64,000 bases of DNA from Anaerolineales bacterium (GCA_016783125.1 JADHXE010000001.1:124-64123); one strand, 5' to 3'. Positions 9,656-31,960 are shown, counted from the first letter of the stretch. Notes: generated from the sequence alone by a model not told the origin. Numbers and translations: made by a program.

Positions 9656-11929
<2,274 letters not shown>

Positions 11930-13246: not shown

Positions 13247-13313
13247 TTCGTTTTATTTCCTCAAGCCAAGATTGCTTCGACGATCTCCAGTTCCTCGCTA
13301 TTGAAATCCAAGT

Positions 13314-13465: not shown

Positions 13466-13543
13466 TCTAAGTTGTTCAATGCGGCTGCAACGCTCTCGAT
13501 TTGGCTGACATTGCTGGCTTCACACGAGAACCTATGAGTCAAT

Positions 13544-14560
13544 TCACACGGGCAGCAATTCTGACAACCGCTCCGACTCAATCTGAGCGTTCTGGTCAAA
13601 TAGATAACAAGATGCCGCCTGAAGGTCGCTCATAAGGTACAACGGCGGGGGTGTTTTGCATTTTTTGGTTGCGAAGGGGCAGCGACTGAGAAATTTGCAG
13701 CCCCCATTGTTTTCACCCAATTCGGCTTCTTCAGCCTTGATTTCCGTTTCACCCCAGCGGCGGTTGAGATCGGGCCACGGGATCGAGTCGATTAGGAGAC
13801 GCGTATAAGGGTGTTGGGGAGCATTGATGACAGTATCTACATCCCCGGCTTCCATGACCGTGCCGCGATATAGCACAATGATCGATTTGGAAATATGGTA
13901 TGCCGTGGTCAGATCGTGGGTAATATATATGATCGTCACCCCGTAATCCTTCTTTAAGCTGCTCAATACTTCCAGAATATTAGCTCGCAGCGAAGCATCT
14001 ACCATTGAGACTGGCTCATCGGCCACTAAAATTTTCGGGCGCAGCAGCAGGGCGCGGGCCACATTTATGCGCTGGCGCTGCCCACCGGAGAGTTGGTGAG
14101 GGAACCGACCAAGAATATCCTGCGGATGCAGACCAACTGCCGAGAGCGCTTCGAACATCTTTTCGCGCATTTCTTTCTTTGAGTGTGCCAGTTTAAAACG
14201 TTTTATTGGCACACTCAGCAAGTGATCCACATGGTAAAAAGGGTTAAAAACGGCAAAGGGATCCTGAAAAACAGCCTGTACCTCACGGCGGAATATCATC
14301 CGTTCTGCACCCTTCAAGGAATTAATATCTTTACCGCGGTATAAGATCTGGCCTGAAGTGGGGGTAATAAAGCCCAGCAATAACATTGCCAGCGTGGTCT
14401 TTCCGCTGCCGCTCTCACCAGCTACTGTCAAAATTGTCGAGTTGCTCTCGTTAACTTTTAATGACAGATTGTTCAGTGCAGTTGTGCCCGGTTGTGTAGT
14501 GAACCATCCGCGGCGAAAAAAGGTTTTTGTGACGTTTCTAAATTCGAGTAATTCTGGCAT
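13544..14560 (-). CDS. ABC transporter ATP-binding protein (OppF/DppF type)
   Basis: Walker A 'GESGSGKTT', signature 'LSGGQRQR', Walker B 'ILVADEP', and a C-terminal Cys-containing oligopeptide-type extension. The start at 14560 lies 2 nt after the upstream stop. Confidence 0.9.
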   Translation of the reverse strand: MPELLEFRNVTKTFFRRGWFTTQPGTTALNNLSLKVNESNSTILTVAGESGSGKTTLAMLLLGFITPTSGQILYRGKDINSLKGAERMIFRREVQAVFQDPFAVFNPFYHVDHLLSVPIKRFKLAHSKKEMREKMFEALSAVGLHPQDILGRFPHQLSGGQRQRINVARALLLRPKILVADEPVSMVDASLRANILEVLSSLKKDYGVTIIYITHDLTTAYHISKSIIVLYRGTVMEAGDVDTVINAPQHPYTRLLIDSIPWPDLNRRWGETEIKAEEAELGENNGGCKFLSRCPFATKKCKTPPPLYLMSDLQAASCYLFDQNAQIESERLSELLPV

Positions 14561-14562
14561 AG

Positions 14563-15537
14563 CTATACCTGCTCTGTGTAAAGATGGCATGCGACCATTC
14601 TTCCGCCTTCCATTTGCTCAAGACGCGGCAGCATGGTTGTGCATATTTCTGTTGTATGCTGGCAACGAGGATGGAACGCGCAGCCCGAAGGCAAGCGCAG
14701 CAATGCGGGCGCTAAACCCGGAATGCCCTGAAAAACCCCCTTGTTATCCAGACTCGGCAAACTGCTGATCAATGCCTGAGCATAGGGATGTTGAGGATTA
14801 GTGAACATCTCGCGCACCGTACTCAATTCCATTAACCTTCCAGTGTACATTACGGCTACTTTATCAACAAATTGGGCCATCAAACCCATATCGTGGCCGA
14901 TCAGAATGATGGCCGCTCCCAGTGTTTCTTGCACACGGTCAATGGTTTCCATTACTTGGCGCTGCGTGACCACATCCAGGGCCGAGGTTGGTTCGTCCGC
15001 AATGATGACTTGCGGCTTGAGCAGGATACCGATGGCAATACAAACCCGCTGCTTCATACCCCCACTGAGTTCATGTGGATACATTTTGAAAACGCTGCGG
15101 TCCAAGTCGACTGATTCGAGAGAATCCATACTCATTTCAGCCATTTCAGCTTTCGAGGGGCTTTTGTAGTGCGCCTTGATCGCATCGACCATTTGCGCGC
15201 CAATGCGCATCACCGGATTGAGCGAATTCATGGCGCCCTGTGGGATATAGGTGATTTTTTCCAACCTGGCTTTGAGCATCTCTTCTTTTGTGAGGGTTGT
15301 CAGGTCTGTATCACCGACAATCACTTGTCCCTCTTCGATGCGGCCGGGCGGTTTGATCATGTGCATCATTGCCAGCGCCATTGTGCTCTTACCCGATCCG
15401 GATTCGCCTACTAAACCGAGTTTCTCGCCAGCGTTCAGGGTCAAGCTTACACCATCCAATGCCCGAGCGCGCCCGGCGTCGGTATAGTAGGTAACTTGTA
15501 GATTATTTATTCTCAGTACTGGTTCCATAACGCTCAA
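14563..15537 (-). CDS. ABC transporter ATP-binding protein (OppD/DppD type)
   Basis: 'GESGSGKST', 'LSGGMKQR', 'VIIADEPTSALD', and the C-terminal 'CAFHPRCQHTTEIC'. Confidence 0.9.
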   Translation of the reverse strand: MSVMEPVLRINNLQVTYYTDAGRARALDGVSLTLNAGEKLGLVGESGSGKSTMALAMMHMIKPPGRIEEGQVIVGDTDLTTLTKEEMLKARLEKITYIPQGAMNSLNPVMRIGAQMVDAIKAHYKSPSKAEMAEMSMDSLESVDLDRSVFKMYPHELSGGMKQRVCIAIGILLKPQVIIADEPTSALDVVTQRQVMETIDRVQETLGAAIILIGHDMGLMAQFVDKVAVMYTGRLMELSTVREMFTNPQHPYAQALISSLPSLDNKGVFQGIPGLAPALLRLPSGCAFHPRCQHTTEICTTMLPRLEQMEGGRMVACHLYTEQV

Positions 15538-16437
15538 TTACTCCGTCCTGCGAACACGCGGGTTGGCCAATTCATCCAGCCCCATGTTGATCAACGCCAA
15601 TGAGGTTAAAATTAATACCATCGCAATCGCGGGTAACAACGGCCACCACCACCAGCCATTAAAGAACGCGCCCTGCGACTGGGCTGCCCAGATGGTATTG
15701 CCCAGCAACGGCTCGCGTAGCGGACCCAAACCGACGACTGCCAGGTAGAAGGATGCGAAAACGGCAGAAAATACTGACCAAACAAAAGATGCAGCAATGA
15801 ATGGCAGCAGGTTTGGCATAATTTCGGCGAAGATGATTTCGAAGTCGCCCATCCCCGATAGTTTTGCCACGGAGACAAACTGACGCTCCTTCATGGAGAG
15901 CACCTGTGAGCGGATAACGATAGTGGGCCACATCCAGGCTAATAGAACCACGATCAACGCCATGGTGTAGATGGTGACATCGCGCTTGTCTAAGGACCCC
16001 GCGATCACGACTTGGATCAAGAAAACCGGAATGGGCAGCAAAATCTGGCACGTGCCTTTGATGATGCTGTCGAGCCGGCCCCCAAAATAAGCCGATATAA
16101 AACCTAAAGTAACGCCGATCAATGTGCCTATCGCCCCGGCCAGCACACCAATCAGGGCGGTTTGCCACATGCCTACAACCATGGCGGCCAGCAGATCGCG
16201 CCCGTAAAAATCAGTTCCGAATGGGTATTCCAAGCTGGGGGGTTGTTTGGGCTTAACAGACAGCGGGTATGCATCACTTGAATCTATGGTCAGTACGCCA
16301 ATTACGGTGAACAAAATCAGCCCGATGAGGATGAAAAATCCAATAAACAAGCCGGGGTTGCGGCGTAAATAACGGAAAAACAGCATTACCCGGCTGGGTT
16401 GCTGAAATTCTTGTTGAGAGATTGTCACGGTTGCCAT
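15538..16437 (-). CDS. ABC transporter permease (OppC/DppC type)
   Basis: A multi-TM protein that abuts the ATPase gene. It has the BPD_transp_1-like loop 'SQVLSMKERQFVSVAKLSG'. Confidence 0.85.
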   Translation of the reverse strand: MATVTISQQEFQQPSRVMLFFRYLRRNPGLFIGFFILIGLILFTVIGVLTIDSSDAYPLSVKPKQPPSLEYPFGTDFYGRDLLAAMVVGMWQTALIGVLAGAIGTLIGVTLGFISAYFGGRLDSIIKGTCQILLPIPVFLIQVVIAGSLDKRDVTIYTMALIVVLLAWMWPTIVIRSQVLSMKERQFVSVAKLSGMGDFEIIFAEIMPNLLPFIAASFVWSVFSAVFASFYLAVVGLGPLREPLLGNTIWAAQSQGAFFNGWWWWPLLPAIAMVLILTSLALINMGLDELANPRVRRTE

Positions 16438-16449
16438 TGATATTTTCCT

Positions 16450-17445
16450 CTATTCACGAATGCGCGGGTCAATCAGTGGGTAAAGCAGCTCTACCATCAC
16501 CATTAGAGTGGCAATCGCAATTGTGATGAATAACACCACACCATAGATCACCAGGTAATCATTGGCTTTGATGGCATTGTATAACACCGTGCCGATGCCA
16601 GGCAAGCCGAACAATTGCTCGATAACGATCCCTGAAGTTACCATATTGCCTAATGCCAGTGCGAATCCGGTAACCTGCGGTAAGAGCGCATTGCGCAGGT
16701 AGTAATCCCGGAAAATTGTAAATCCACTGAGACCCTTATGTTCCGCAAAGAGCACATAGTCTTCCCCTTGGATGGTGACGCCCATACCGCGCATCGATAG
16801 CACCCAGCCGCCCACGGTACCAAAGATGAGCGCCAGAGCAGGCAGCAGTTGGTGACGCAGTACATCCAGGTAAAACTCCAACGATTGGTCGGGTATGACA
16901 CCGATGGAATAGGCCCCGCCCAATGGCAATGCTTTCAGCCGAAAGGCGACGAAGAATAACAAAAACACGGCTAACAGCACCGGAGGTACGCCCATAAATA
17001 AGATAAAAGGTGTCGCAATGCTGCGCAGCCAACGAGGAGCACGCGGCCAGGCAGCCACTGCGCCGAGGGAATTGCCAATGATGAAAGATAATATCGTGCT
17101 GACGACCAACAGACCTAACGTCCAGGGTATCGCTTCCTGAATAAGTTCCAAGACTGTCTTGGGGTATTGGTACAACGAAACACCCAGGTCCAGGCGTGCA
17201 ATACCGCCTATATAATCCGCATATTGCTCCCAAAGTGGCTTATCCAGACCGAACTTTTGACTATATGATTCGATGATGATCTCCAACTCATCGGGAGAAA
17301 AACCACCCGTCCGGGCCAGTTGCCCAAATCGCTCGCGGATGGGATTGCGTTTTGATATTCGCGGAATAAAAAAGGTGATCGTAGACGCAGTCCAGATCAC
17401 CACGACAAGAAAGAGTAGACGCTCGATAACCTTTCGAATACTCAC
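16450..17445 (-). CDS. ABC transporter permease (OppB/DppB type)
   Basis: A multi-TM protein with 'RGMGVTIQGEDYVLFAEHKGLS' (EAA-type loop). It ends 'LIDPRIRE', which is typical of DppB-like permeases. Confidence 0.85.
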   Translation of the reverse strand: MSIRKVIERLLFLVVVIWTASTITFFIPRISKRNPIRERFGQLARTGGFSPDELEIIIESYSQKFGLDKPLWEQYADYIGGIARLDLGVSLYQYPKTVLELIQEAIPWTLGLLVVSTILSFIIGNSLGAVAAWPRAPRWLRSIATPFILFMGVPPVLLAVFLLFFVAFRLKALPLGGAYSIGVIPDQSLEFYLDVLRHQLLPALALIFGTVGGWVLSMRGMGVTIQGEDYVLFAEHKGLSGFTIFRDYYLRNALLPQVTGFALALGNMVTSGIVIEQLFGLPGIGTVLYNAIKANDYLVIYGVVLFITIAIATLMVMVELLYPLIDPRIRE

Positions 17446-17486
17446 ATTGTCTCTCCTTAGATATATATTTATCCAATAACTATGCT

Positions 17487-17605
17487 GGTAACTGATCAGC
17501 CATGGAACGGATTGCCCCGAAAAAAGGGTGTGCGCAGGGGGGCTGCCGCTTTGCGCCTGCGCACACCCTTTTTTTTTGAGCTTCCCTGTTTGGTTGAGTA
17601 GTTAC
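17487..17605. repeat. Second copy of the TIR-bearing palindromic element, carrying a GGGTGTGCG hairpin core
   Basis: The termini are GGTAACTGATCAGCC (17487-17501) and GGTTGAGTAGTTAC (17592-17605). The core is a 19-bp stem AAAAAAGGGTGTGCGCAGG / CCTGCGCACACCCTTTTTT (17520-17577) with A/T runs on both sides, which looks like a bidirectional terminator. Confidence 0.6.
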
Positions 17606-17631
17606 GTATGCTGTTACAGAAGATTTGATAC

Positions 17632-17660
17632 TTGAGTGGCGCGTTGGACGCGCCACTCAA
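17632..17660 (-). other. Perfect 12-bp stem-loop 12 nt downstream of the binding-protein gene (possible mRNA stabiliser/attenuator)
   Basis: TTGAGTGGCGCG-ttgga-CGCGCCACTCAA. No U-run follows on either strand. Confidence 0.4.
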
Positions 17661-17672
17661 ATATTATAGTAC

Positions 17673-19556
17673 TTATTTGGTGCTTTGCAGGTTGGTTACC
17701 ACAAGCTGACCAGTGTGTGCCCAGAAGGCACCATTGGAACCGGCAGCCAGGTTATCAACCGTTGGCCAGTTGACCCAGTAGGTCTGGTTGTAAGCAATGC
17801 GGTGCAGCCACTGGATAACGGGGATGTCAATCACATCGCGCCAGTAGATCTCCATTGCCTGAGCAGCCAGCTCATGGAAGCGGGGATCATCTGAAGCTAA
17901 CGGGGCCATCTCATCGAGGATAGCATCGTACTCAGGGTTGCTGTAGCGTGACCAGCGGTTGGTGCCAGCGGTGGTGCCGAGATCGGCACTGTAGCGGCCA
18001 TGGTACAGCTCAAAAGCGGCATAGGGATCCTTAAGGCTTGCGCCGTGACCCCACATGTACATGCCAGCTTCTCCGTCAACCATGTTTTGGAAGGCATTGT
18101 CGCCAAAGTTCACCGAGCCGTCGAAGCCGCAGTTGATGAACATCTCTACGAGAACGGGAACGATATCGCTGTGGATACCTTCGAAGCCATTGATCACGGC
18201 GGAAACGGTTTCTCCATCACGCTCCCACATACCATCACCGTTCAAAACAAACCCGGCATCGGTCATCAGGGCAGCAGCCTCGTCTGGATCGAACTTGCGA
18301 GGTTCGTATTGTTCGATCAAAGCCTGAACCTCGGGAGAGTCGACGAAGGCCTGCAAACCTGGGTAGAGCGGGAAGGGGTAGACGTCGGCGATCTCGGCTC
18401 CTTCGTAGACGATTTCGTTGATGGTATCGCGGTCGACACAACGGTTCATAGCCTGGCGTACGCGCACATCATCGTAGGGCGGCAGTTGGGTGTTGACCCA
18501 CAGTGAGTTAGGCCACCAGTCCAGATAACCGTAAGGCGGGTTGTCGCCGGCGTGGGTGGTGATATCGGAATTCTGCGCCAGGATGCTCTTGATCAAATCG
18601 CTGCGCATGTCCAGGGCTGAGTCCATCTCGTTGTTGACAATACGTTGCGCAACAACATCCATGTTTTGGCCGATCTGTCCGCCCAGGTTGAACATAACGA
18701 TGCGCTTGACATCTGGGGTATCGATCAGGCCAGCTTCCACGGCCCACCAATCTTCACGCAGGTCGAGGATCTTCTGGTTGTTGTCCCAGCTCACGATGGT
18801 GTAGGGGCCGGAGTGGGGCATATCCAGGTCACCGGGGAAGTCGTTCCAACTGTCCAGTTCACCCAGTACATGAGCCGGAACAATGGGGATACCGGTGTCG
18901 AATTTGAGCATCAAGACTTCGAACTTGAAGCGCGGGGCAGGCTGTTTGAAGGCTACAACAACGGTCAGCTCGTCTGCAGCTTCAACGGATTCAACAAACT
19001 GGTCGAATTGGCCGTGGTAAGGCAGCTTCTCGTCATTCATCTGGCCTTCGAAGGTGAAAACCACATCTGCCGCTGTTACAGGGACACCATCGCTCCACTT
19101 GGCCATCGGGTTCATCTTGATGGTCAGCTCAGTGAAGTCTTCTTTGGTGTACTCCATGCTCTCTGCCAGCCAGGGGATTTCCTCGTCGGCAAAGATGCCA
19201 AACCAGTAGAGCGGTTCCCACAAGAAAGTGTTGCCTTCTTGGTGGGTGTAACCGGGAACTGCCCAGGGATTGGTCACCCCGATGGGGGATGCAATACTCC
19301 AGCCCAGCACAAGCGTATCTTCGCGAGCAACTTCGGCGATACCACCGGTAGCTTCCTCAGCTTCTTCTACTTTCTCGGCCTCAGCTTCTTCGGCTTCTTC
19401 GGCCTCTTCGGCTGCCGCAGCTTCTTCAGCTTCGGGAGCTTCTTCGGCTTCCTCGGCAGCCGCAGGGGCTTCGGGAGCTTCTGAAGGGCTACACGCTGAT
19501 AGCACAAAGCTGAAGACTACCAGAATGGACAACAAAGTCAGTAACCATTTTTTCAT
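17673..19556 (-). CDS. ABC transporter substrate-binding lipoprotein, family 5 (peptide/oligosaccharide type)
   Basis: The signal plus lipobox is 'FVLSAC'. A ~45-aa Glu/Ala-rich tether follows ('EAPAAAEEAEEAPEAEEAAAAEEAEEAEEAEAEKVEEAEEA'), then an SBP_bac_5-like body. Confidence 0.85.
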   Translation of the reverse strand: MKKWLLTLLSILVVFSFVLSACSPSEAPEAPAAAEEAEEAPEAEEAAAAEEAEEAEEAEAEKVEEAEEATGGIAEVAREDTLVLGWSIASPIGVTNPWAVPGYTHQEGNTFLWEPLYWFGIFADEEIPWLAESMEYTKEDFTELTIKMNPMAKWSDGVPVTAADVVFTFEGQMNDEKLPYHGQFDQFVESVEAADELTVVVAFKQPAPRFKFEVLMLKFDTGIPIVPAHVLGELDSWNDFPGDLDMPHSGPYTIVSWDNNQKILDLREDWWAVEAGLIDTPDVKRIVMFNLGGQIGQNMDVVAQRIVNNEMDSALDMRSDLIKSILAQNSDITTHAGDNPPYGYLDWWPNSLWVNTQLPPYDDVRVRQAMNRCVDRDTINEIVYEGAEIADVYPFPLYPGLQAFVDSPEVQALIEQYEPRKFDPDEAAALMTDAGFVLNGDGMWERDGETVSAVINGFEGIHSDIVPVLVEMFINCGFDGSVNFGDNAFQNMVDGEAGMYMWGHGASLKDPYAAFELYHGRYSADLGTTAGTNRWSRYSNPEYDAILDEMAPLASDDPRFHELAAQAMEIYWRDVIDIPVIQWLHRIAYNQTYWVNWPTVDNLAAGSNGAFWAHTGQLVVTNLQSTK

Positions 19557-21925: not shown

Positions 21926-22917
21926 TATTCGTCCTTTTGGATTTTGCCAGCGCTGAGATGTAGCGCGTCTATGACAGATTGTTTGAGCGGAATTTCGAGA
22001 ATGTTCAGACCAAGCAAGCAGGCCCCCAACTCCGGGGGTAGTTCAGGATATTGAACCTTGCAATTGGGCAAACGCTTTGTCACAGCCTGCTTTAGGGGTG
22101 CCACAAAAGTCTCTTTGGCATTCATCAAGCCACCGACCAATACCAACTCACAAGCGTCGAGCATATTAATGTATTTTGCTACGGCAAGAACACAATCAAC
22201 AAGATCATCAACGGCTTGTTGAATGAACTGTTGAGCGACTTGATCGCCTGCTCTGGCAGCTTCAATCACGATCGTAGCAAGTTTGGCAATTTCGGGGCGT
22301 GTCATTCCTTTGCTGTAGAGATGATGCATAATCTCGTTGATATGCTCCAATTTCAGCTGTTGCATCACCCGGTCGAACAATACAGTCGCTTTTCCCCGAC
22401 CATCGTAGGCCCGCACGGTCATGATCATGGCCTGAACACCGAGCCAGTAGCTGCTGCCCTCATCGCTAATCAACTCTCCCCAGCCACCAGAACGCCATCC
22501 ATCACCTTTTTCATTCATCCCAAAGCACGATGACCCTGTCCCGGCAATCAATACGATGCCCGGTCGGCCAGTCAATCCACCAGCTAATGCAACCCGGCAA
22601 TCGTGGTCAACGCCCACCTTATTGGGTGAGGCCAGCTTCAGATTCATAGCTATTTGATGGATAATCTGGCGGTCGGTTGGGGATACTACCCCCGCCACTC
22701 CCAGGAAAGCAGCCCCAAAGGGTTGTGGTCTGATCCCTGCGCTCTTCCACGCTGCTTCCACGGTTGCCCCGATATTTTTCTGCGCCACCTTTGCGCCGAT
22801 ATCATCATAATTCGATGGGCCGCCAATGCCCGTTCCCAGAAGATGACCCCCCTCGTCCAAAATCGCGGCGCGGGTTTTCGTTCCACCACCATCGATCCCA
22901 AGGATATATTTTTTCAT
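21925..22917 (-). CDS. BadF/BadG/BcrA/BcrD-type ASKHA ATPase, N-acetylglucosamine-kinase-like
   Basis: 'ILGIDGGGTKTR', 'LIAGTGSSCFG', 'GGWGELISDEGSSYW'. Confidence 0.8.
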   Translation of the reverse strand: MKKYILGIDGGGTKTRAAILDEGGHLLGTGIGGPSNYDDIGAKVAQKNIGATVEAAWKSAGIRPQPFGAAFLGVAGVVSPTDRQIIHQIAMNLKLASPNKVGVDHDCRVALAGGLTGRPGIVLIAGTGSSCFGMNEKGDGWRSGGWGELISDEGSSYWLGVQAMIMTVRAYDGRGKATVLFDRVMQQLKLEHINEIMHHLYSKGMTRPEIAKLATIVIEAARAGDQVAQQFIQQAVDDLVDCVLAVAKYINMLDACELVLVGGLMNAKETFVAPLKQAVTKRLPNCKVQYPELPPELGACLLGLNILEIPLKQSVIDALHLSAGKIQKDE

Positions 22918-23513
22918 GTTTCTTTTAGAGAGTCTACAAACGCTTGTCTTTTACTTAGTTCTGGCTCACCGTTTATCGAAACCAATATATGATCGAAGCC
23001 GCGTTCTTTTACGAAACCATAGTCATGACCCGCATTGGCAGGATAGATTCCAATATAGGTTAGTTTTTTAGTTCCTGTATTGATTGTGCGGTGTGCGGTG
23101 TGCCCGGGTACATAGATAATGGAGTTTTTTAAAAAAGGGATGAGTCTACTTTCCCTAGTAGCCTCATCTTCCAAGAGCATAAAACCTTCGCCACTGAGAC
23201 CAATATAGATCTCTGCTGCCTCTCGCCAACGATGCAAATGTCCTTTGGTTAGGTAGTACTCTGCGCCAACTTGCCCAGGCATCAAAACACCAATACCGTA
23301 ATTCAGATCACCTTCACCCTGGGTAGGGCTAATATTGTATACCTGATAAAGTATCGGATCATCTTTAGCCAACATTTCATAAAAAGCAGCTTCATCTGCA
23401 AAATAGCCCGCCATATCGCTCAAATAACGAGCACTGAGGGATGCGCCTGGTATGTTGGGGTTGTCGGGATCAAATTGGATAAGTTGTAAGGGCAGTGATA
23501 GAAAGGGGGACAT
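22914..23513 (-). CDS. Cupin-type glucose-6-phosphate isomerase family protein
   Basis: 'YYLTKGHLHRWREAAEIYIGLSGEGFMLL' and 'YVPGHTAHRTINTG' match the cupin PGI signature (TxGHxH ... HRxxN). It overlaps the next gene by 4 nt. Confidence 0.75.
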   Translation of the reverse strand: MSPFLSLPLQLIQFDPDNPNIPGASLSARYLSDMAGYFADEAAFYEMLAKDDPILYQVYNISPTQGEGDLNYGIGVLMPGQVGAEYYLTKGHLHRWREAAEIYIGLSGEGFMLLEDEATRESRLIPFLKNSIIYVPGHTAHRTINTGTKKLTYIGIYPANAGHDYGFVKERGFDHILVSINGEPELSKRQAFVDSLKET

Positions 23514-23716: not shown

Positions 23717-24553
23717 ATGGATTCTTTGGATCAGAAACACCAAACCAAATTGCTGGCCGACCAACGCAGGCAGCGGATATTGACTTCAGTCTATGAGCAT
23801 GGCTCAGTAAATACAGATGAGTTGGCTGCCAGATTTGATGTTTCGTCTATGACGATCTGGCGTGATCTCAAAATTCTGGAAGATGCAGGCATGATTCGCC
23901 GAATTCGGGGCGGGGGAACCCTACCGGATGGGTTTACTGCAGCCGAGCCGATATTTCAAAAGAAACAAACCCTTAACCGAGAAAAGAAGGCCAGCATAGC
24001 AGCCTACGCAGCGCAGCACTTTGTCCAAGATAATCACATCATCATCCTGGAAGCCGGGACAACGGCCATGGCGATGGTCAAATACCTGAACCAGCGCAAC
24101 TTGACCGCCATCACCAATGGTCTGGGCACCCTAAATGAACTGGCCCACAGGTTGAATAATATCAACTTGCTTTCTTGCGGCGGTATGATGCGTGAGATCG
24201 GATATACATTTGTCGGCCCGCAAGCTGAGCAATTCTTCAAGAATATCCGCGCCAACACATTATTTTTAAGTGCTACCGGTTTGGCTTTGCCTGAGGGGAT
24301 TACCGATCCTAACCCGCTCGAGATTCAAATCAAACGAGCCATGGCTACCAGTGCAGAGCGAATCGTGCTGATAATGGATAGTACTAAATTTGGAGTTCGC
24401 TCTCTTGCTGAGATACTTCCGCTTGAAAAGGTCGCTGTGCTAATTACAGATAGTGGTGCTCCGGAGGACTTTGTCTCTGAGCTATGCCAAATGGGCCTGG
24501 ATGTGCATATTGCCAGTGCAGGGGAGAGGATCAATGAGGAATGTGACGAGTAA
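23717..24553 (+). CDS. DeoR-family transcriptional regulator
   Basis: The N-terminal HTH is 'RRQRILTSVYEHGSVNTDELAARFDVSSMTIWRDLKILE', followed by a DeoR C-terminal sugar-phosphate sensor domain. Confidence 0.9.
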   Translation: MDSLDQKHQTKLLADQRRQRILTSVYEHGSVNTDELAARFDVSSMTIWRDLKILEDAGMIRRIRGGGTLPDGFTAAEPIFQKKQTLNREKKASIAAYAAQHFVQDNHIIILEAGTTAMAMVKYLNQRNLTAITNGLGTLNELAHRLNNINLLSCGGMMREIGYTFVGPQAEQFFKNIRANTLFLSATGLALPEGITDPNPLEIQIKRAMATSAERIVLIMDSTKFGVRSLAEILPLEKVAVLITDSGAPEDFVSELCQMGLDVHIASAGERINEECDE

Positions 24554-24563
24554 GCTCGATACC

Positions 24564-25451
24564 ATGGCCACGATCAGAAAAAGAGAGGGCTTTGAGGGAC
24601 AGATCATGTACGTAATTCCCCGGCCTATGCTGAAGAAATTCGCACAGCATGTTTTGATTCACCAACTTATTGCAACGGATATTGGATGGTATCCCAAAGC
24701 TCGTTATCATTATCGCGAACGGCCTTCCGGAGCGCCGGAACACATTCTCATTTTGTGCATTGATGGTCAAGGGTGGTGTGAAATTGATGGCAAGCGGGAA
24801 GTTGTAGATGCAAATCAAGCGCTGGTGATCCCTCGAAATACGCCCCATATTTATGGAGCCAGTGATGATGCCCCCTGGTCTATCCATTGGGCACATTTTA
24901 TGGGGACAGTGTCGGACTACTTTCCCCATTTGCTTCCAGATGGTGTTTATACAATGGCAGTCGCTCCGGATACCATTGAAGTGCTTGAGCGACTTTTTCA
25001 TGAATGCTATGGGGCTTTTTTGGGTAGTTTCGCCTGGCAGAGGATGGTTCACGTCACACAGACATTGCATTGTCTATTGGGCAACCTGTTTTTCAACAAT
25101 AGCTTGTTTTCGCCAATATTACGAACCAGCCAATCTCGTAATCTTGATAGAACCCTGGATTATCTTAGTGATAACCTGGACCAACCGCTTTCTTTGCAAG
25201 ATATGGCCGACCAGGCAAACCTTTCAAAATCTCATTTCTCTCGCGTATTTAAGGATCAAATCGGTTTTTCGCCAACTGACTATTTTATCCATTTGAAGGT
25301 GCAACATGCCGCTATGTTGCTTAGTTTTACAGATAAAACGGTGCGCGAGATAAGTTTCGAAGTTGGTTATCAAGACCCATATTATTTTTCTCGCGTTTTT
25401 AAAAATATCATTGGGCTGTCACCGACAGATTTTCGCAAACACTCAGAATAA
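24564..25451 (+). CDS. AraC-family transcriptional regulator with N-terminal cupin sensor domain
   Basis: The cupin part is 'HILILCIDGQGWCEIDGKR..ALVIPRNTPHIY'. The C-terminal double HTH is 'LQDMADQANLSKSHFSRVFK..' and 'YQDPYYFSRVFKN'. The start is ambiguous (24534 or 24564). Confidence 0.85.
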   Translation: MATIRKREGFEGQIMYVIPRPMLKKFAQHVLIHQLIATDIGWYPKARYHYRERPSGAPEHILILCIDGQGWCEIDGKREVVDANQALVIPRNTPHIYGASDDAPWSIHWAHFMGTVSDYFPHLLPDGVYTMAVAPDTIEVLERLFHECYGAFLGSFAWQRMVHVTQTLHCLLGNLFFNNSLFSPILRTSQSRNLDRTLDYLSDNLDQPLSLQDMADQANLSKSHFSRVFKDQIGFSPTDYFIHLKVQHAAMLLSFTDKTVREISFEVGYQDPYYFSRVFKNIIGLSPTDFRKHSE

Positions 25452-25481: not shown

Positions 25482-25534
25482 CCGAAAAAAGGGGTGTGTG
25501 TGGTGCGGAGCACCCCACACACCCCTTTTTTCGG
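25482..25534. repeat. GGGGTGTG-type palindromic hairpin (bidirectional terminator-like)
   Basis: The 19-bp stem is CCGAAAAAAGGGGTGTGTG / CACACACCCCTTTTTTCGG. An outer inverted repeat flanks it: GGATTTACGC (25454-25463) ... GCGTAAGTCC (25552-25561). Confidence 0.6.
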
Positions 25535-25719: not shown

Positions 25720-26997
25720 ATGAATTCACGAGAACGAGTAAGGCTTGCTCTTGAGCATAGAGAACCAGATCGCATTCCCCTTGACCTGGGAGCAGGATTT
25801 CAAACGGGAATGCACGTCAGTATGGTTTATGCCCTGCGCCAAGCCCTTGAACTGGATGATCCTGGGACGCCCATTAAAGTGATCGAGCCATACCAGATGT
25901 TAGGGGAAATTAAAATCGATTTACTCGATGCGCTTGGTGCTGACTTGGTGGGAGTAAACCCTCCAAAGACCATGTTTGGTTACAAGAATGAGGGATGGAA
26001 ACCCTGGACGACCTTTGACGGTACGCCTGTATTGGTATCAGAGTACTTCAATACACAAGTCGACCAGAACGGCGATCTATTGGCCTACCCCGAGGGAGAC
26101 AAATCTGTACCGCCAAGCGGTCGTATGCCTCAAGGTGGTTTTTATTTCGATTCAATTATTCGCCAGGAACCCATTGACGACGTTAATCTAAGCGTTGCTG
26201 ACAATCTTGAAGAATTCGGTTTGATCTCCGATGAGGATTTAGCTTTCTTCGGTCGTGAGGTGGATCGACTTTATATTGAGACTGACCGTGCTATCTACGC
26301 CAATTTTGGCGGCACAGCCATTGGGGATATTGCCCTGGTACCAGCCCCATGGCTAAAACATCCTAAGGGAATCCGTGATATTGAGGAGTGGTATATCAGC
26401 ACCCTTACCAGAAGAAACTATGTTTACCAAATCTTCGAGCAGCAGACCGAAATTTCCCTACAAAACCTGGCAAAGATCTTTGAAGTAGTCGGCAATAAAG
26501 TGCAAATCGTGTTCCTTACGGGGACTGATTTCGGCGCGCAAGATCGGGCCTTTATGTCCCCCAAAACTTACCGTGATTTGTATAAACCCTTCCATAAGGC
26601 GATTAACGATTGGGTGCACGAAAACACAACCTGGAAAACTTTCATGCACTCCGATGGCGCCATTTTGTCGTTGATCCCAGATATTATTGAAGCAGGTTTT
26701 GATATTCTCAATCCTATTCAGTGGACGGCAAAGGATATGGAGCTGAAGCTGCTGAAGGAGCGATTTGGCGACCAGCTCGTATTCTGGGGCGGTAGTGTTG
26801 ACTCTCAAGGGACTTTCCCCTTTGGGACACCAGAACAAGTAAGAGCAGAAGTATTGCAAAGTATTCGCGATTTGGCTCCCGGTGGAGGCTATATTTTCAA
26901 TTCCATACACAATATCCAACCGGGGACACCCATAGAGAATCTGCTGGCATTTTATGAGACGATCCAAGAGCACAGGCAGTATCCAATAGTGACATAG
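25720..26997 (+). CDS. URO-D superfamily protein, MtaA-like methyltransferase candidate (paralog 3, longest)
   Basis: 425 aa. It starts with 'NSRERVRLALEHREPDRIPLD' and contains 'FMHSDGAILSLIPDIIEAGFDILNPIQW' and 'GGGYIFNSIHNI'. An AGGAGA Shine-Dalgarno sequence lies upstream. Confidence 0.8.
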   Translation: MNSRERVRLALEHREPDRIPLDLGAGFQTGMHVSMVYALRQALELDDPGTPIKVIEPYQMLGEIKIDLLDALGADLVGVNPPKTMFGYKNEGWKPWTTFDGTPVLVSEYFNTQVDQNGDLLAYPEGDKSVPPSGRMPQGGFYFDSIIRQEPIDDVNLSVADNLEEFGLISDEDLAFFGREVDRLYIETDRAIYANFGGTAIGDIALVPAPWLKHPKGIRDIEEWYISTLTRRNYVYQIFEQQTEISLQNLAKIFEVVGNKVQIVFLTGTDFGAQDRAFMSPKTYRDLYKPFHKAINDWVHENTTWKTFMHSDGAILSLIPDIIEAGFDILNPIQWTAKDMELKLLKERFGDQLVFWGGSVDSQGTFPFGTPEQVRAEVLQSIRDLAPGGGYIFNSIHNIQPGTPIENLLAFYETIQEHRQYPIVT

Positions 26998-27007
26998 GAT
27001 AAGCCAG

Positions 27008-27916
27008 ATGAATATTGAAGTACTCAACTACAAAGGGTGGGCGAATTCTCTACGGCTTTCCAATCATTTGGTTGATCTCGTAATTCTGACAGAGATTGGA
27101 CCTCGGATTATTCGCTACGGATTTTTAGGAGAAGACAATCTCTTCGTTGAGCTTTCTGAGACCCTGGGTCATAAAGGAGGAAATACCTGGCATGTGTATG
27201 GGGGGCATCGCCTCTCTCATGCCCCACAGGCAGACCCACGTTCCCATTATCCCGACAATTTTCCTGTTGAGTATATAGAAAAAGATGGCTTTCTACAAGT
27301 GGTTCAATCTGTGGAACCCACCAACGGAATACAAAAAGAACTGGACATTTATTTAGATGCCCACTCCACGAAAGTCACCGTTGTGCATCGCTTATATAAT
27401 CGAAACCTTTGGCCTGTAGAACTGGCTCCCTGGGCGTTATCGGCAATGTCCCCAGGGGGGATGGCAGTTGCGCCCTTACCGCCGCGTGGCACGCATCATG
27501 ATGACTTGCAACCAACAGGATGTGTGTCGCTTTGGGCATATACTGATATGTCAGATTCCAAGTGGAAATGGGGGCGTGAATACATCTTTTTATCCCAAGA
27601 TACTAAGAATCAGGAACCTCAAAAAGCTGGATTTTGGGTGCCTGCTGGATGGACAGCTTATCATTGGGGTGATGTTTTGTTTATAAAACAATTTGAGATC
27701 AAGTCCGGCAAGTATTATCCAGATAAAAATGTAAATGTGGAATTCTACACAGATCACAGTCTACTTGAAGTAGAAACTTTAGGTCCTCTGACATGTGTAG
27801 AGCCAGATCAATTTGTTGAGCATGTGGAAACATGGTCACTTCATAAAGGGGTCCCCGCAATAGAAACTGAAAGCTCAGTACGCCACGCGGTTACTCCATT
27901 GTTATCAAACAAATAA
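27008..27916 (+). CDS. Conserved hypothetical protein, aldose-epimerase/DUF4380-like beta-sandwich (tentative)
   Basis: 302 aa. 'IGPRIIRYGF..NLF', 'GGHRLSHAPQ' and 'EVETLGPL' resemble mutarotase-like domains. It starts 10 nt after URO-D paralog 3. Confidence 0.45.
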   Translation: MNIEVLNYKGWANSLRLSNHLVDLVILTEIGPRIIRYGFLGEDNLFVELSETLGHKGGNTWHVYGGHRLSHAPQADPRSHYPDNFPVEYIEKDGFLQVVQSVEPTNGIQKELDIYLDAHSTKVTVVHRLYNRNLWPVELAPWALSAMSPGGMAVAPLPPRGTHHDDLQPTGCVSLWAYTDMSDSKWKWGREYIFLSQDTKNQEPQKAGFWVPAGWTAYHWGDVLFIKQFEIKSGKYYPDKNVNVEFYTDHSLLEVETLGPLTCVEPDQFVEHVETWSLHKGVPAIETESSVRHAVTPLLSNK

Positions 27917-27926
27917 GGAGAATATC

Positions 27927-28562
27927 ATGACAGAAAATATGACTACCATTTACAATAGCATCATCGAAGGCGCAAAGGACGAGACCCTGGTGAGTGTACA
28001 ACAAGCACTTGATGCTGGTCTCGACCCCGGCAAAGTGTTGAATGAAGGCATGATTTCAGCAATGAAAGAGGTAGGTAGGCTCTTCGAAGAAGGTGAATTC
28101 TTCGTTCCTGAAATGCTCATTGCTGCTCGTGCCATGCAAGCAGGCCTGGGGATACTGAGACCTTTACTCGTAGACTCTGGCATTGAGCCAGTAGGTAAGG
28201 TAGTCATCGGCACCGTCAAAGGTGATTTGCACGATATCGGCAAAAACCTTGTAGCTATGATGATGGAAGGGGCTGGATTCGAAGTGATTGATCTGGGGAC
28301 GGATGTATCACCAGAGCAATTCGTTGAAGCAGCCAAAGCCCATCAACCGGATATCATCGGTATGTCCGCACTGCTTACAACTACAATGCCCTCAATGGAA
28401 GCTACCATCAAAGCATTGCAAGAAGCCGGTGTGCGGAAGAGTATTAAGGTGCTGGTTGGTGGTGCACCAGTTACCGATGCATTTGCAGATAAAATCAAAG
28501 CTGATGGTTTCTCCCCTGATGCCAGTCGGGCGGCTAATTTAGCGAAATCACTCTTGACGTAA
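27927..28562 (+). CDS. Corrinoid (cobalamin-binding) methyl-carrier protein, MtaC/MtbC/MtsB type
   Basis: 211 aa with a helical cap plus a Rossmann domain. DxHxxG is 'GDLHDIGKN' (nt 28224-28241), SxL is 'MSALLTTT', and GG is 'KVLVGGAPV'. An AAGGAGA Shine-Dalgarno sequence lies upstream. Confidence 0.9.
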   Translation: MTENMTTIYNSIIEGAKDETLVSVQQALDAGLDPGKVLNEGMISAMKEVGRLFEEGEFFVPEMLIAARAMQAGLGILRPLLVDSGIEPVGKVVIGTVKGDLHDIGKNLVAMMMEGAGFEVIDLGTDVSPEQFVEAAKAHQPDIIGMSALLTTTMPSMEATIKALQEAGVRKSIKVLVGGAPVTDAFADKIKADGFSPDASRAANLAKSLLT

Positions 28563-28892: not shown

Positions 28893-29327
28893 TCATGCCA
28901 AAATTACACAGGCGGTCCCGACGGGGAGTGAACCCATTTTGAAGTAAATTAGGGGGACAGAAATCAGTATCGGTGTTTGGCTGAGTGCCAGTCGGGAGAC
29001 TTCCAGCCCCAGCACAATACCGGCATTTCCCAGGCTGACCTCTGCCACCAGTTGTTGAAAGCCTGCTCGATCCACAGCCGTGGCGCCCGACTGGCCCAGG
29101 TCACAATCAATCACGTGCACGCGCTCTATGGGCCATCCCAGCGCCACCGCCTGCTGCTGGAGTGCATACTGGCGCTGAGTGCTCTCGGTGTTTTGCACCA
29201 CCTGGTGTAACGTTGACTGCCGCACATACAGAAAGGCAGCGCGCTGCAAGTGCGAAGCGGTCACTTTCGTGCCGCCCAGCTTTGATGCGTTGCCCAATAA
29301 ATTGATTGGGTTAGTCTGCTCGGTCAT
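28893..29327 (-). pseudogene. Serine recombinase, N-terminal catalytic fragment only
   Basis: 'AAFLYVRQSTLHQV' (catalytic Ser motif) through '..IVLGLEVSRLA' is recognisable. Homology then stops at ~28985 and the ORF runs into unrelated sequence. Confidence 0.7.
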
Positions 29328-30030
29328 CTTGCTCCTCCAGCCGGTCTCCCAAGACCAAAGCCGCCAGCGCCAGGATCAAATCGCAACCCGGGGTTTCGGT
29401 CTCGGCTATCTGTAAATCAGCCGAGCCAGCACCGGGCGGTGGGCAGGGCGGCACATACGCCATCCAGGCCGCCAACCCCCGACGCTCGATGAAGGCCAGT
29501 TCCAGTCCATTGCAAGTGGTTGTCTCCCCAGGCTCCAGGGCCTGGCGACGCAGGATTTCGTATTGCTTCTCACACTCGGCCATATTCCGAACGACCGTTG
29601 GATGTGAGGCCTCTGAGGCTGCATTGGCGGTCAGCCCTTTTTTTGGCGCCGCACCAGCGCCCTTTCGATACTGCGCAGATGCACTGAGATGCCAAACCGT
29701 TTGGCCACGCGCCATGGCAAGTCTGCTGTGCGCAGCTCGGGTTCGGCCTTTAGTGTATCCCAGATATAGGTCAAGACATCGTCGGTCAGCTTGTGAGCCC
29801 GCCGGGGGCCCTTGCGTTGAGGCAGCAGCCCAGCCAGCCCCTCGGCCTCGAAGCATTTGCAGCATTTCGTATTTGACTTGCACCAGATCGCGCGGGTCGA
29901 AGAAGGGGTGCACCCGAAACAGTCCATCGCTGACTTGTTCGGGATGCCGGTTCAGGGTGGCGTACTCGCACAGGCTGGCGCACTTGGAATCGGTCTGCGT
30001 CCGGATACGCATCATGGCCTCCAGATCCAA
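29311..30030 (-). pseudogene. Mobile-element HTH protein with two frame changes
   Basis: Protein-like flanks in one frame ('FFDPRDLVQVKYEML', 'ECEKQYEILRRQALEPG..AFIERRGLAAWMAY') bracket a middle part that reads sensibly only in another frame (29927-29631: 'LLPQRKGPRRAHKLTDDVLTYIWDTLKAEPELRTADLPWRVAKRFGISVHLRSIERALVRRQKKG'). One junction is at a T7 run, ~29637-29643. Confidence 0.45.
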
Positions 30031-30152
30031 ACTCGGTTGGGAATATCTCAGCCCAGATCGATAATCTCATTATGGGGCAGATTGGGTGATTGTCAACACC
30101 CCCTGCCCCATTTGGCGGCATAATACGCTTATCATAGGCGGCATAATACGCT

Positions 30153-30494
30153 TTACAGATCAGCCGGGCTTTGTGCATCGCACACCTCCTCAAGCTCTCC
30201 GGCCAGAAAAGCTACCAGCCGCGATAGTTCCAACAAATCCGTCACTCGAAAAGCCGATCGCCCGGCTGCCAGGCTCACAAAAGGGTCCACAGGAGCCAGA
30301 CTGGTCCACACCAGGGGCAACGAACACAGTGTCCCGTCTTCGTCATGGTGGTACACGCGCTCTTCTCCCCAGTTGCAACGACGCGTGACCAGCTCAATAA
30401 CCTTTCCGCTCAGAGGGTGAAATGGGTGGGTTACCTTAAAAGTTTCGGCCTCACCGTTCAATAACGGTGTAGTTGACGGTGTAGACCAATTCAT
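30153..30494 (-). CDS. Small conserved mobile-element-associated protein (unknown function)
   Basis: 113 aa, 'FKVTHPFHPLSGKVIELVTRRCNWGEERVYHHDEDGTLCSLPLVWT'. It is the first gene of the small-ORF/HTH/serine-recombinase string. Confidence 0.45.
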   Translation of the reverse strand: MNWSTPSTTPLLNGEAETFKVTHPFHPLSGKVIELVTRRCNWGEERVYHHDEDGTLCSLPLVWTSLAPVDPFVSLAAGRSAFRVTDLLELSRLVAFLAGELEEVCDAQSPADL

Positions 30495-30763
30495 TCTGTG
30501 AGCGCTTCATTGGCAGCCTGAGGCGTGAATGCCTGGACCACATGCTCATTCTCCATCGCCACCAACTGCATCGTATTGTGCAAGCTTATATCGAATACTA
30601 CAACTGCTCCAGACCACTTCAAGGCATCGGGCAGCAGATCCCGAATGACTTCGTCGAGAACAGCCCCTGGCCCATAGGCCAGCCTGGGGGAAGAATCACC
30701 TCTACACCCGTCCTGGGCGGACTCCACCACAGCTACGCTCGGACTGCTGTCAGTACGAACTGA
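30485..30763 (+). pseudogene. C-terminal fragment of an rve/integrase-core transposase
   Basis: 'NSFCERFIGSLRRECLDHMLILHRHQLHRIVQAYIEYYNCSRPLQGIGQQIP' is the typical tail of DDE integrase-core transposases. There is no upstream part; the frame opens just after a stop at 30482-30484. Confidence 0.7.
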
Positions 30764-31375
30764 CTGCAGTCCCATATTAGCAATTGCTCTCAGTCACAGG
30801 CCACCAACGAATTGTTGATGGCCTGTCTGTGTTTTGCTGGTTCCTGAAAATGTCCGCTTTTAGTGTTTTTCTGCGCTCCGCTTTTTACGCTTCGATCCAT
30901 TATTCGCTTGCGAACTCAGGATTTGGTTGGCCTGCTGGCAAAAACCAACCGAGAATCAATCTGAAACCCCGTGGATGAGTTATGTAGCCAGCACAGGACA
31001 GAAATCGGCGTCGGTGTGTAGGTCTTATTTTTCAGAAAGAAACCATTGAGTGTGCTTTCAAGCACACTTTTTTTGTTTTACAATGTGCACGCTTTCGTTT
31101 TTCAGTACTTTTCGCGTACTGAATGCATTTTATCTGAAGTCGTAAGAACGTAAGTCATATTTCGAGAAATCTACCTGTAAATATTGTTGCCCTCTTCGGG
31201 GGCGATATCATAGTTGGGATATGCAATTGCAAGTTCGGACTAACAAATACATCATCCTGAATAACCAGACCAGGAGTTTTGGCTTTCCAAATGCCCAATT
31301 AGTATGATTTTTGGCCGTTTATTTGCCAGAAGGGCTCGGATGAAGTTACGTACCCTACGAACCCCTAATCTATCA

Positions 31376-31732
31376 CTAAACAGGTTCTCGCTTACCAAGA
31401 CTCTCAGCCAAAAACGTTATTACTAAGGAATTCATGCTAATTCCCTCCCGTTTTGCTCGCACCGCTAAACGCGCATGAAGACTCTTGGGAACACGCTGTA
31501 TAAACTTTCCGCTATACCCACCCCCGCTCCCGGGTTCAGGAACATGAAATCCCATATCTTCTAACGCAGCAATTGTTTCTTGTAATGCATCAAAACCGTT
31601 TTGTATTGCTTCTTCGGGAGTTTCACCATCGGATATACATTCCGAGAAATCTGGAAATGAAATCAAGAAACCGCCACCATCTTCTTCACTCAATGGGCGT
31701 ACTTCAAAAGGATATTGACTTAATTCTCTCAT
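31376..31732 (-). CDS. hicB: HicB-family antitoxin
   Basis: 118 aa. The HicB N-domain is 'YPFEVRPLSEEDGGGFLISFPDF..CISDGETPEEA'. The C-terminal RHH-like part is 'FIQRVPKSLHARLAVRAKREGISMNSL'. Confidence 0.85.
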   Translation of the reverse strand: MRELSQYPFEVRPLSEEDGGGFLISFPDFSECISDGETPEEAIQNGFDALQETIAALEDMGFHVPEPGSGGGYSGKFIQRVPKSLHARLAVRAKREGISMNSLVITFLAESLGKREPV

Positions 31733-31735
31733 AGT

Positions 31736-31960
31736 TCACTCGGTTACAAATTCGACAAATTTCTTGATGAAAATCGGCTTGATGGGGCGACGTGCGGGAA
31801 CCGGTAATGTTCGCCCATCTGATCGGATAAATACAACATGGCTGGTGCCTTTTTGTCTCCATTCAATATCGTTTGCGCGTGCTATTGTTTTTAGATTATC
31901 AATCCGCCAATCTCGGGGATTGTTGCGCATCTTTTGTAAAAGTTTGTCTGATCTGCTCAC
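31736..31960 (-). CDS. hicA: HicA-family mRNA-interferase toxin
   Basis: 74 aa, 'WRQKGTSHVVFIRSDGRTLPVPARRPIKPIFIKKF'. It lies 3 nt upstream of hicB. Confidence 0.8.
   Translation of the reverse strand: MSRSDKLLQKMRNNPRDWRIDNLKTIARANDIEWRQKGTSHVVFIRSDGRTLPVPARRPIKPIFIKKFVEFVTE

Follow-up and report, generated by a model that had tools for sequence, protein, structure and literature searches.

A 64,000-nt stretch of DNA from an Anaerolineales metagenome-assembled genome (MAG; protein MBL7160977.1, locus tag ISS57_00105), called the window below, contains a compact operon of three genes encoding a protein of the URO-D family (URO-D3), a galactose-mutarotase-like protein and a corrinoid protein (CP). 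On genomic inference alone, and with roughly even confidence, we read this trio as the substrate-side half of a corrinoid-dependent O-methyl-sugar demethylase, in which a substrate:corrinoid methyltransferase (MT-I) and its carrier would feed the Leloir pathway. The parts of this reading are not equally firm: a methyltransferase/carrier pair is very probable, a sugar-linked system is probable, and O-methyl-galactose as the specific substrate is a tentative proposal. Judged by comparative genomics, sugar catabolism is truly coupled to a corrinoid methyltransferase pair, in a widespread and apparently uncharacterised arrangement.

Operon structure

All three open reading frames (ORFs) are intact, and both intergenic gaps are 10 nt, which agrees exactly with the tight plus-strand arrangement described in an earlier reading of the sequence (the original prediction). 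The AGGAGA-type Shine-Dalgarno sequences that it assigned to the trio are present ahead of the URO-D3 gene (cAGGAGAtcaatcATG) and the CP gene (aAGGAGAatatcATG), but the mutarotase gene has merely tAGGATaagccagATG (AGGAT). The trio and the recombinase fragment downstream of it are found again on independently assembled contigs from several samples, so the arrangement is no assembly artefact. Purifying selection acts on all three genes, with ratios of nonsynonymous to synonymous substitution (dN/dS) of 0.04-0.16 versus relatives (0.11-0.16 for the mutarotase and 0.06 for CP; dS is often saturated).

The AraC-family gene upstream probably encodes the regulator of the operon. Its start at 24534 is the one called on the identical contigs, and its position next to URO-D3 is kept in relatives L090-L095. 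A strong hairpin between the two (-43.6 kcal/mol, z = -9.7 versus shuffles) parts AraC from the operon, which would therefore have its own promoter region; a scan for intrinsic terminators found none after the CP gene. Further upstream, a DeoR gene (23717-24553) overlaps the AraC gene by 20 nt, placing two sugar-type regulators in tandem before the operon.

URO-D3 as a predicted MT-I

The Pfam URO-D model matches URO-D3 over residues 219-418 only (E 1.9e-16). The AlphaFold2 (AF2) model (mean predicted local distance difference test score, pLDDT, 93.3) is a UroD/MtaA barrel with a large N-terminal elaboration; in a fold search of the PDB, MtaA (4ay7/4ay8) is the best match and UROD the next, and cobalamin-independent MetE is a distant one. 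Three more familiar identities were considered and rejected: HemE, by its score (TIGR01464, 17.8 bits against a cut-off of 302.95 bits); a true MtaA, by curated score (TIGR01463, the MtaA/CmuA model, 35.5 bits against a cut-off of 235.4 bits) and motifs; and an MtsA-like enzyme, likewise by curated scores and motifs.

Residues His310, Asp312 and His397 form a putative metal triad. The H-x-[D/C]-G motif and an invariant His of the URO-D3 family align to the zinc ligands of MtaA, which we place in its H-I-C-G and G-C-G motifs. An H-x-D-G motif and a later His are common to all three URO-D paralogs of the window (H-S/T-D-G and His at aligned positions), and the H-x-C...C zinc site of MtaA is absent from all of them, His/Cys/Cys having become His/Asp/His; URO-D3 contains no cysteine residues at all. 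Across the URO-D3 family, 67 of 73 genes have Cys as the middle ligand and the other six have Asp, and the later His is invariant in the aligned sequences. These alignments make a His/Asp(Cys)/His metal site likely in the family.

Residue 312 (window 26653-26655) is Asp in the clade of the window and in a few Chloroflexia, and the CP-adjacent URO-D3 homologs beyond this clade all have Cys at the corresponding position.

We predict that URO-D3 is an MT-I, because every complete module of this family contains another candidate for the second methyltransferase (MT-II) and because its length is MT-I-like. The MT-II candidate is a pterin-binding protein in loci L005 and L047, an MtaA-like protein with the motif HICG...GC in Acidobacteriota, and MtaB plus an MtaA-like protein in locus L076. 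As for length, URO-D3 (425 aa) is close to CdmB (429 aa in the PDB) and MtoB (47-48 kDa), both of them MT-I enzymes of the UroD superfamily (PMC13222342, PMC8630106).

The corrinoid protein as a probable methyl carrier

Two Pfam domains, B12-binding_2 (3.5e-21) and B12-binding (8.4e-32), fill the 211 residues of CP, and the DxHxxG/SxL/GG motifs appear as DLHDIG at residue 100, SAL at 147 and GG at 178. The best PDB sequence matches are Moorella 1y80 (2.5e-62), MttC 7xcn and Desulfitobacterium hafniense 4jgi, and the score against TIGR02370 (methyltransferase cognate corrinoid protein) is 202.8 bits, just under the cut-off of 215.3. It is highly improbable that this protein is instead a B12-binding sensor or regulator or, in a variant of that idea, that the system is biosynthetic and methylates a sugar. 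CP does match CarH-type B12 domains weakly (E 1e-5 to 1e-8), but the matches to methyltransferase carriers are far stronger, Pfam detects just the two B12 domains with no DNA-binding or other output domain, and in relatives the gene accompanies RACo, MT-II and MetF; the biosynthetic variant is at odds with a context that is catabolic throughout. A CarH-type regulator in particular was rejected, since CP reaches 34 bits with the CarH model, whose cut-off is 400, and has no fused MerR-type domain.

The middle protein

Sequence and predicted fold identify the middle protein as a galactose mutarotase of the TTE1925 family, which bears out its earlier description as mutarotase-like. Residues 2-287 of 302 match positions 2-284 of 298 in NCBIfam NF052227 (E 8.6e-87), and the score of 291 bits, below the equivalog cut-off of 550 bits, indicates a relative of TTE1925 and not an equivalog. 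The AF2 model (pLDDT 91.5) is a galactose-mutarotase-like beta-sandwich, for which Foldseek returns Slr1438 (1.8e-10), YeaD (2e-09) and Bacillus subtilis GalM (6e-09), with template modelling (TM) scores of 0.55-0.62; a PDB sequence search gave a chance-level match only. Pfam DUF4380 (PF14315) matches at 19 bits, under its gathering cut-off of 29.4 bits, and is present in many homologs about 50% identical to the protein. TTE1925 is a locus tag of Thermoanaerobacter tengcongensis, presumably part of the gal operon of that organism. This gal operon is cited, as Qian et al. 2009, in PMC3608648.

Partner genes in the window and in syntenic relatives

Searching the 64 kb by tblastn with the L005 pterin-binding MT-II, DUF1638, RACo, MetV and MetF proteins gave nothing better than E 0.2, and no MtaB/MttB/MtmB, pterin-binding or RACo/RamA protein occurs among the other large ORFs scanned with Pfam, which belong to ABC transport, regulators, the GalT-GalK fusion, signalling, and riboflavin and cysteine genes. 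Both scans confirm the earlier observation that the 64 kb lack an MT-I of the MtaB/MttB/MtmB type, an MT-II and a RamA/RACE activase. At the level of the MAG, which is incomplete, the L005 RACo query gave no ISS57/MBL716... entry among its close matches and their cluster members, where names are sparse.

The puzzle of the missing partners is largely resolved by synteny, which indicates that the operon is not intrinsically minimal. In L005 (Chloroflexi; mutarotase 55% and URO-D3 81% identical to those of the window), the order is substrate-binding protein (SBP; 80% identical to that of the window importer)-LacI-URO-D-GalK-GalT-URO-D3-mutarotase-CP, and then Pterin_bind-DUF1638-RACo-MetV-like-methylenetetrahydrofolate reductase (MetF). 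At the corresponding site in the window, directly 3' of the CP gene, there is mobile-element debris, in which a serine recombinase that is truncated lies together with DUF5372, HicAB and unknown ORFs; a search for repeats, inverted or direct, gave no convincing ones at its borders. A further RACo paralog (P0258), with 69% identity to the first, is presumed to lie on the L005 contig (JAAENC010000680.1), and the L005 genome would accordingly hold more than one corrinoid methyltransferase system.

The other relatives show the trio in different states of completeness. It stands as AraC-URO-D3-mutarotase-CP in L095 (mutarotase 72% identical to the window's), as URO-D3-mutarotase-CP followed by an ortholog of the window's URO-D1 (66%) in L097 (mutarotase 73%), and as mutarotase-URO-D1 ortholog in L096 (84%). 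In L090-L094 (83%), AraC-URO-D3-mutarotase faces GalT, and the CP gene is a 3' stub of about 150 nt right after the mutarotase gene (3142-3290 in L090, and present in L091-L094 too), with URO-D3 and mutarotase intact. URO-D3-mutarotase(-CP) under AraC is kept in five related lineages, and the URO-D3-mutarotase gaps are 10-16 nt across lineages, down to 55% mutarotase identity. We therefore regard the trio as ancestral in the clade and its surroundings as quickly remodelled.

Related Anaerolineae contain stand-alone ISL3-Pterin_bind-DUF1638-RACo modules, so the MT-II/activase half is often physically apart from the substrate-side half; blastn of three such loci (L087-L089) against the window found no common DNA. 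Beside the module in two of these (L088 12366-19640, L089 5603-12877) lies a diversity-generating retroelement (RVT_1 + bAvd) with two NACHT/FGE-sulfatase-domain targets.

The original prediction had left two explanations for the missing partners, namely that the URO-D paralogs divide or double up both half-reactions, or that the partners are encoded elsewhere. Because L005 carries them directly after CP and the window operon ends in debris, the evidence, together with the stand-alone modules, favours partners that are elsewhere or lost; paralogs that share a carrier also find support, in L097 and in L165/L167 (see below). A stronger form of loss, in which the trio is a decaying remnant whose MT-II and activase disappeared by rearrangement at mobile elements and which no longer transfers methyl groups, is quite unlikely. 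The recombinase fragment, DUF5372 and HicAB do lie where L005 has its partner genes, and the sister lineage L090 is already without most of its CP gene, but the three window ORFs are intact and show the low dN/dS values given above, partner-less methyltransferase and CP pairs are common, and the stand-alone modules of related Anaerolineae could serve in trans. Layouts with missing partners are normal for such operons, and they change fast by deletion and transposition.

Distribution and neighbours of the URO-D3 and URO-D1 families

URO-D3 (424-aa family) has more than 8000 protein relatives, a lower bound, of which the best 120 each share 65% identity or more with the window protein, and at least 588 matching stretches in species-representative genome contigs. 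Neighbours were counted at the 80 best-scoring loci only (tblastn E 1e-8 and at least 50% coverage), with a crude ORF caller and on many short contigs, so that all neighbour counts given here are approximate lower bounds. The best 80 URO-D3 loci come from Chloroflexota, Acidobacteriota, Planctomycetota, Armatimonadota, Hydrogenedentota, KSB1, Bacillota and Bathyarchaeia, and identity within the family is 61-90% across phyla, with 61-68% over many of them. Within the fetched flank, a CP (50-64% identical to the window's) is found at 17/80 loci, RACo at 14/80 and DUF1638 at 12/80; the usual module order is DUF1638, short URO-D, RACo, CP, URO-D3, where the short URO-D has the canonical MtaA motif HICG...GC. 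Among 145 immediate neighbours of URO-D3, B12-binding proteins are commonest (14), followed by URO-D, MFS, GFO/IDH/MocA and Sugar_tr. In other phyla, URO-D3 adjoins LacI, CUT2/CUT1 ABC transporters, FGGY kinase, GFO/IDH/MocA and Sugar_tr.

Three loci illustrate the range. L047 has LacI, a xylose-isomerase-like barrel, a CUT2 ABC transporter, URO-D3, another URO-D, CP and dehydrogenases, with Pterin_bind-DUF1638-RACo upstream. L075 has a CUT2 ABC transporter, URO-D1 (68%), URO-D3, FGGY kinase, FmdE and FecCD. L076 (a KSB1 MAG; 4483-10835) lines up RACo, CP, a genuine MtaB (Pfam 4e-162), URO-D3 and an MtaA-like protein in a row. The FmdE-like protein of L075 has a C4 zinc ribbon and precedes a FecCD-type ABC importer that may serve corrinoid uptake (13111-16623); FmdE is a recurrent neighbour in other URO-D3 loci too. 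Some URO-D/CP/RACo modules include proteins with a homocysteine S-methyltransferase domain (L032 1972-2847; L151 12816-13673), which hints at a split MetH-like route from methyl donor to methionine in these modules.

URO-D1 has at least 565 metagenome relatives, the best 80 of which are 68-78% identical. Of these 80 loci, 21 have a CP of the same subfamily (56-68% identity to that of the window) right beside URO-D1, and 27 have a LacI homolog, which in several lies directly before URO-D1; other URO-D paralogs are frequent; Pterin_bind (2/80) and RACo (1/80) are rare. Within 4.5 kb of URO-D1 we find CUT2 sugar ABC components (Peripla_BP_4 and BPD_transp_2, 15 each), class II aldolase (Aldolase_II, 10), aldose 1-epimerase (Aldose_epim, 7), FGGY kinase (4), fucose isomerase (3), GalK (3), GH42 (3), arabinose isomerase (2) and alpha-galactosidase (2).

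These counts indicate that methyltransferase and carrier pairs lacking a local MT-II and activase are the norm in both families, so the minimal layout, taken as unusual in the original prediction, is in fact the commonest one. They also indicate that the families are consistently wired into galactose/fucose/arabinose-type catabolism, with mutarotase recurring via two mutarotase families. The earlier suggestion that carbohydrate handling is coupled to the methyl transfer is in this way strongly backed by gene context, both in the window and in other phyla.

It is an unlikely alternative that MT-I and CP are a generic pair whose donors are methoxy-aromatics, methanol, or methylated amines or thiols, and that they lie beside Leloir genes by virtue of a compact genome. 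Such donors would fit the known UroD-superfamily MT-I enzymes, whose substrates are aryl methyl ethers and chloromethane (PMC13222342, PMC8630106), as well as the URO-D3 homolog inside the MtaB-MtaC operon of L076 and the variable, non-sugar neighbours at most URO-D3 loci. They would leave unexplained why the close URO-D3-mutarotase adjacency persists over so much divergence, and why sugar regulators, transporters and kinases recur near URO-D3 and URO-D1 in unrelated phyla, including the seven canonical aldose epimerases by URO-D1.

The sugar island and the other URO-D paralogs

A sugar island, of which the operon forms one arm, also includes GalT-GalK, URO-D1, an Opp-type importer, LacI, URO-D2 with a kinase and an isomerase, DeoR and AraC (Table 1). 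GalK and GalT are unfused in relatives, standing beside URO-D3 in L005, while in L090 GalT is convergent to the mutarotase gene.

Table 1. Features of the operon and its surroundings in the window (SBP, substrate-binding protein).
Feature	Coordinates	Strand	Description
GalT-GalK fusion (Leloir pathway)	9656-11917	-	753 aa, TTG start; GalP_UDP_transf N + C, GalKase_gal_bdg and GHMP kinase domains
URO-D1	12158-13246	-	362 aa, MtaA-like; HTDG at 252, THH at 335; Pfam URO-D 1e-27
Opp/Dpp-type ABC importer	13544..19556	-	SBP 17673-19556 (SBP_bac_5); permeases 15538-17445 (BPD_transp_1 x2); ATPases 13544-15537 (ABC_tran + oligo_HPY x2)
LacI-family sugar-responsive regulator	19644-20663	-	Pfam LacI + Peripla_BP_1/3
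URO-D2	20804-21925	-	373 aa; HTDG at 267, CNH at 348; Pfam URO-D 2.4e-18; operon with sugar kinase and phosphohexose isomerase
BadF/NagK-type sugar kinase	21925-22917	-	Pfam BcrAD_BadFG; NCBIfam NagK_SO3507 137 bits, under cut-off
Cupin-type glucose-6-phosphate isomerase	22914-23513	-	Pfam GPI
AraC-family regulator	24534..25451	+	Pfam AraC_binding + HTH_AraC/HTH_18
Strong hairpin between A-run and T-run, bidirectional terminator, at AraC/operon boundary	25482..25534	.	RNA fold
URO-D3 gene	25720-26997	+	425 aa, intact ORF
Mutarotase gene	27008-27916	+	302 aa, intact ORF
Corrinoid protein (CP) gene	27927-28562	+	211 aa, intact ORF
Mobile-element debris after CP gene	28893..31960	-	Occupies the position that partner genes have in relatives
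Truncated serine recombinase	28893-29327	-	Pfam Resolvase N-terminal fragment
DUF5372 ORF	30153-30494	-	Annotated on identical contigs
HicB	31376-31732	-	Annotated on identical contigs
Small ORF upstream of HicB	31736-31960	-	

URO-D1 is probably a second methyltransferase acting on the same carrier. It scores 82.9 bits against TIGR01463 and matches MtaA 4ay7 at E 3.8e-11, with H-T-D-G aligned onto H-I-C-G and T-H-H onto G-C-G; URO-D2 scores 48.5 bits against the same model (cut-off 235.4). The order URO-D2-like-CP-URO-D1 occurs in L165 and L167.

These paralogs raise the possibility, which we consider a minor but appreciable one, that the URO-D proteins are self-sufficient and split the half-reactions on a single carrier, for example with URO-D3 or URO-D2 as MT-I and URO-D1 as MT-II, so that a pterin-binding MT-II is unneeded. 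The methyltransferase-CP-methyltransferase order of L097, L165 and L167, the standing of URO-D1 as the paralog nearest to MtaA, and the presence of a pterin-binding gene at just two of the 80 URO-D1 loci are all consistent with such a division. Against it, a pterin-binding MT-II accompanies these genes in L005, L047 and L130, URO-D1 is without the Cys ligands by which MtaA activates its thiol acceptor, the frequent LacI-URO-D1-CP pairs resemble a substrate-induced MT-I with its carrier, and an activase would be needed all the same.

Elsewhere in the window, two large minus-strand ORFs (3943-6621, 892 aa; 34199-35572, 457 aa) have no Pfam match. Two further minus-strand ORFs look truncated: an N6 DNA methylase (1204-2097), which covers the first ~225 of 311 Pfam positions, and a Ser/Thr kinase (3202-3831), which has only the C-terminal part of the kinase domain.

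Proposed pathway

In the O-methyl-sugar demethylase that we propose, a methylated galactose-type sugar would be imported, probably via the neighbouring Opp-type ABC transporter, and URO-D3 would hold it at the His310/Asp312/His397 metal site. The Co(I) form of CP would strip off the O-methyl group, which leaves galactose free and the protein in its CH3-Co(III) form; the TTE1925-type mutarotase would equilibrate the anomers, and the GalT-GalK fusion would run the Leloir pathway. A pterin-binding MT-II would pass the methyl group to tetrahydrofolate, MetF/MetV would tie it to C1 metabolism, and a RACo activase would repair oxidised Co(II). Import, demethylation and galactose processing would all be encoded in the window, whereas the MT-II and RACo steps are encoded in L005 and not in the 64 kb, so that their genes would act in trans or be lost. 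URO-D1 and URO-D2 would probably work on the same carrier, for other methyl-sugars.

A number of observations weigh against this pathway. MT-II and activase genes are absent from the window and were not located in the MAG. In L090, the closest relative, CP is deleted with URO-D3 and mutarotase intact, and therefore URO-D3 may use a carrier in trans or none, compare cobalamin-independent MetE. About 60 of the 80 URO-D3 loci have no CP within 10 kb, and the approximate nature of the neighbour counts applies to this figure as well. The mutarotase insertion beside URO-D3 is confined to this clade of marine Anaerolineales. Sequence similarity between URO-D3 and CdmB, the only solved UroD-type MT-I, is not significant (E 0.08-0.23). 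Lastly, the leaving group of an alkyl methyl ether is much poorer than that of the aryl ethers on which known O-demethylases act.

In its broadest form, the proposal is that URO-D3, URO-D1 and the dedicated CP represent the first carbohydrate-specific MT-I enzymes, an anoxic B12-dependent demethylase of O-methylated galactose-/fucose-/arabinose-type sugars or methyl glycosides that would deliver the methyl group unoxidised to tetrahydrofolate and would be widespread (Chloroflexota, Acidobacteriota, Planctomycetota, Bacillota, Bathyarchaeia). On gene context, we consider this a reasonable possibility, though short of probable. Red-algal porphyran, pectin side chains, the walls of mosses and algae, and bacterial polysaccharides contain methylated sugars, and sugar methyl ethers block glycolytic processing. 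If the proposal is true, a corrinoid route would explain how anaerobes use methyl-sugars in sediments, peat and oxygen-minimum zones, anaerobic C1 metabolism would gain a new class of methyl donor, and two very large, highly conserved, unannotated families (the >8000 URO-D3-type proteins, a lower bound, and at least 565 URO-D1 relatives) would gain a function.

Comparison with known systems

MtaA of the Methanosarcina methanol:coenzyme M system (MtaA/MtaBC; 4ay7) is the best fold match of URO-D3 and the best sequence match of URO-D1, and the metal-ligand positions align. The window proteins differ from it in scoring far under the family cut-offs and in having Asp and His in place of the Cys ligands, and the window has no MtaB; coenzyme M synthesis is not expected in this bacterial lineage. 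MtsA/MtsB resembles the trio in pairing a URO-D-type enzyme with a corrinoid partner and no separate protein of an MT-I family. The original prediction drew on this system, in which a single enzyme catalyses both half-reactions, but the analogy is weak because all three paralogs have His/Asp/His for the His/Cys/Cys of MtaA; the expected thiol-activating His/Cys/Cys site is absent here, and relatives have a dedicated MT-II and activase. With the TTE1925 mutarotase of T. tengcongensis, the middle protein shares a full-length NF052227 match, the beta-sandwich fold and the company of GalK/GalT, and it differs in its score (291 versus 550 bits) and in the location of its gene between a methyltransferase and the corrinoid carrier of that methyltransferase.

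The full-text literature searched, which includes few subscription journals, gave no precedent for corrinoid-dependent demethylation of methyl-sugars, and the sole route retrieved is the P450 demethylase of 6-O-methyl-D-galactose in marine Bacteroidota, which is oxidative and O2-dependent and releases formaldehyde (PMC6292453, PMC10033563). It does the same job as we propose here, removing a methyl ether so that galactose enters central metabolism, with an unrelated protein family; unlike it, the proposed system would operate anoxically and keep the methyl group, first on the corrinoid and then on tetrahydrofolate. MtgB of Bathyarchaeia was rejected as a model for the MT-I, being about 300 aa long and, by its description, without homology to known methyltransferases (PMC10989822).

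The closest likeness is to MtvABC, Odm, MtoABCD and CdmBCA, which combine a UroD-superfamily MT-I of about 425-430 aa with a ~210-aa DxHxxG corrinoid protein, and also with a pterin-binding MT-II and an ATP-dependent RACo-type activase that are here found in the relative L005. Known corrinoid systems may also have no activase gene in their cluster (PMC13222342, PMC8630106), and none is listed for the characterised cdmBCA cluster (PMC13222342). The window system differs from all of these in its putative His/Asp(Cys)/His triad, its setting of sugar transport and Leloir genes and the mutarotase inside the operon, and its predicted donor is an alkyl (sugar) methyl ether versus an aryl ether or a halomethane. 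The comparison suggests that the architecture is that of known corrinoid O-demethylase/dehalogenase systems, and that the coupling to sugars is its apparently unreported part.

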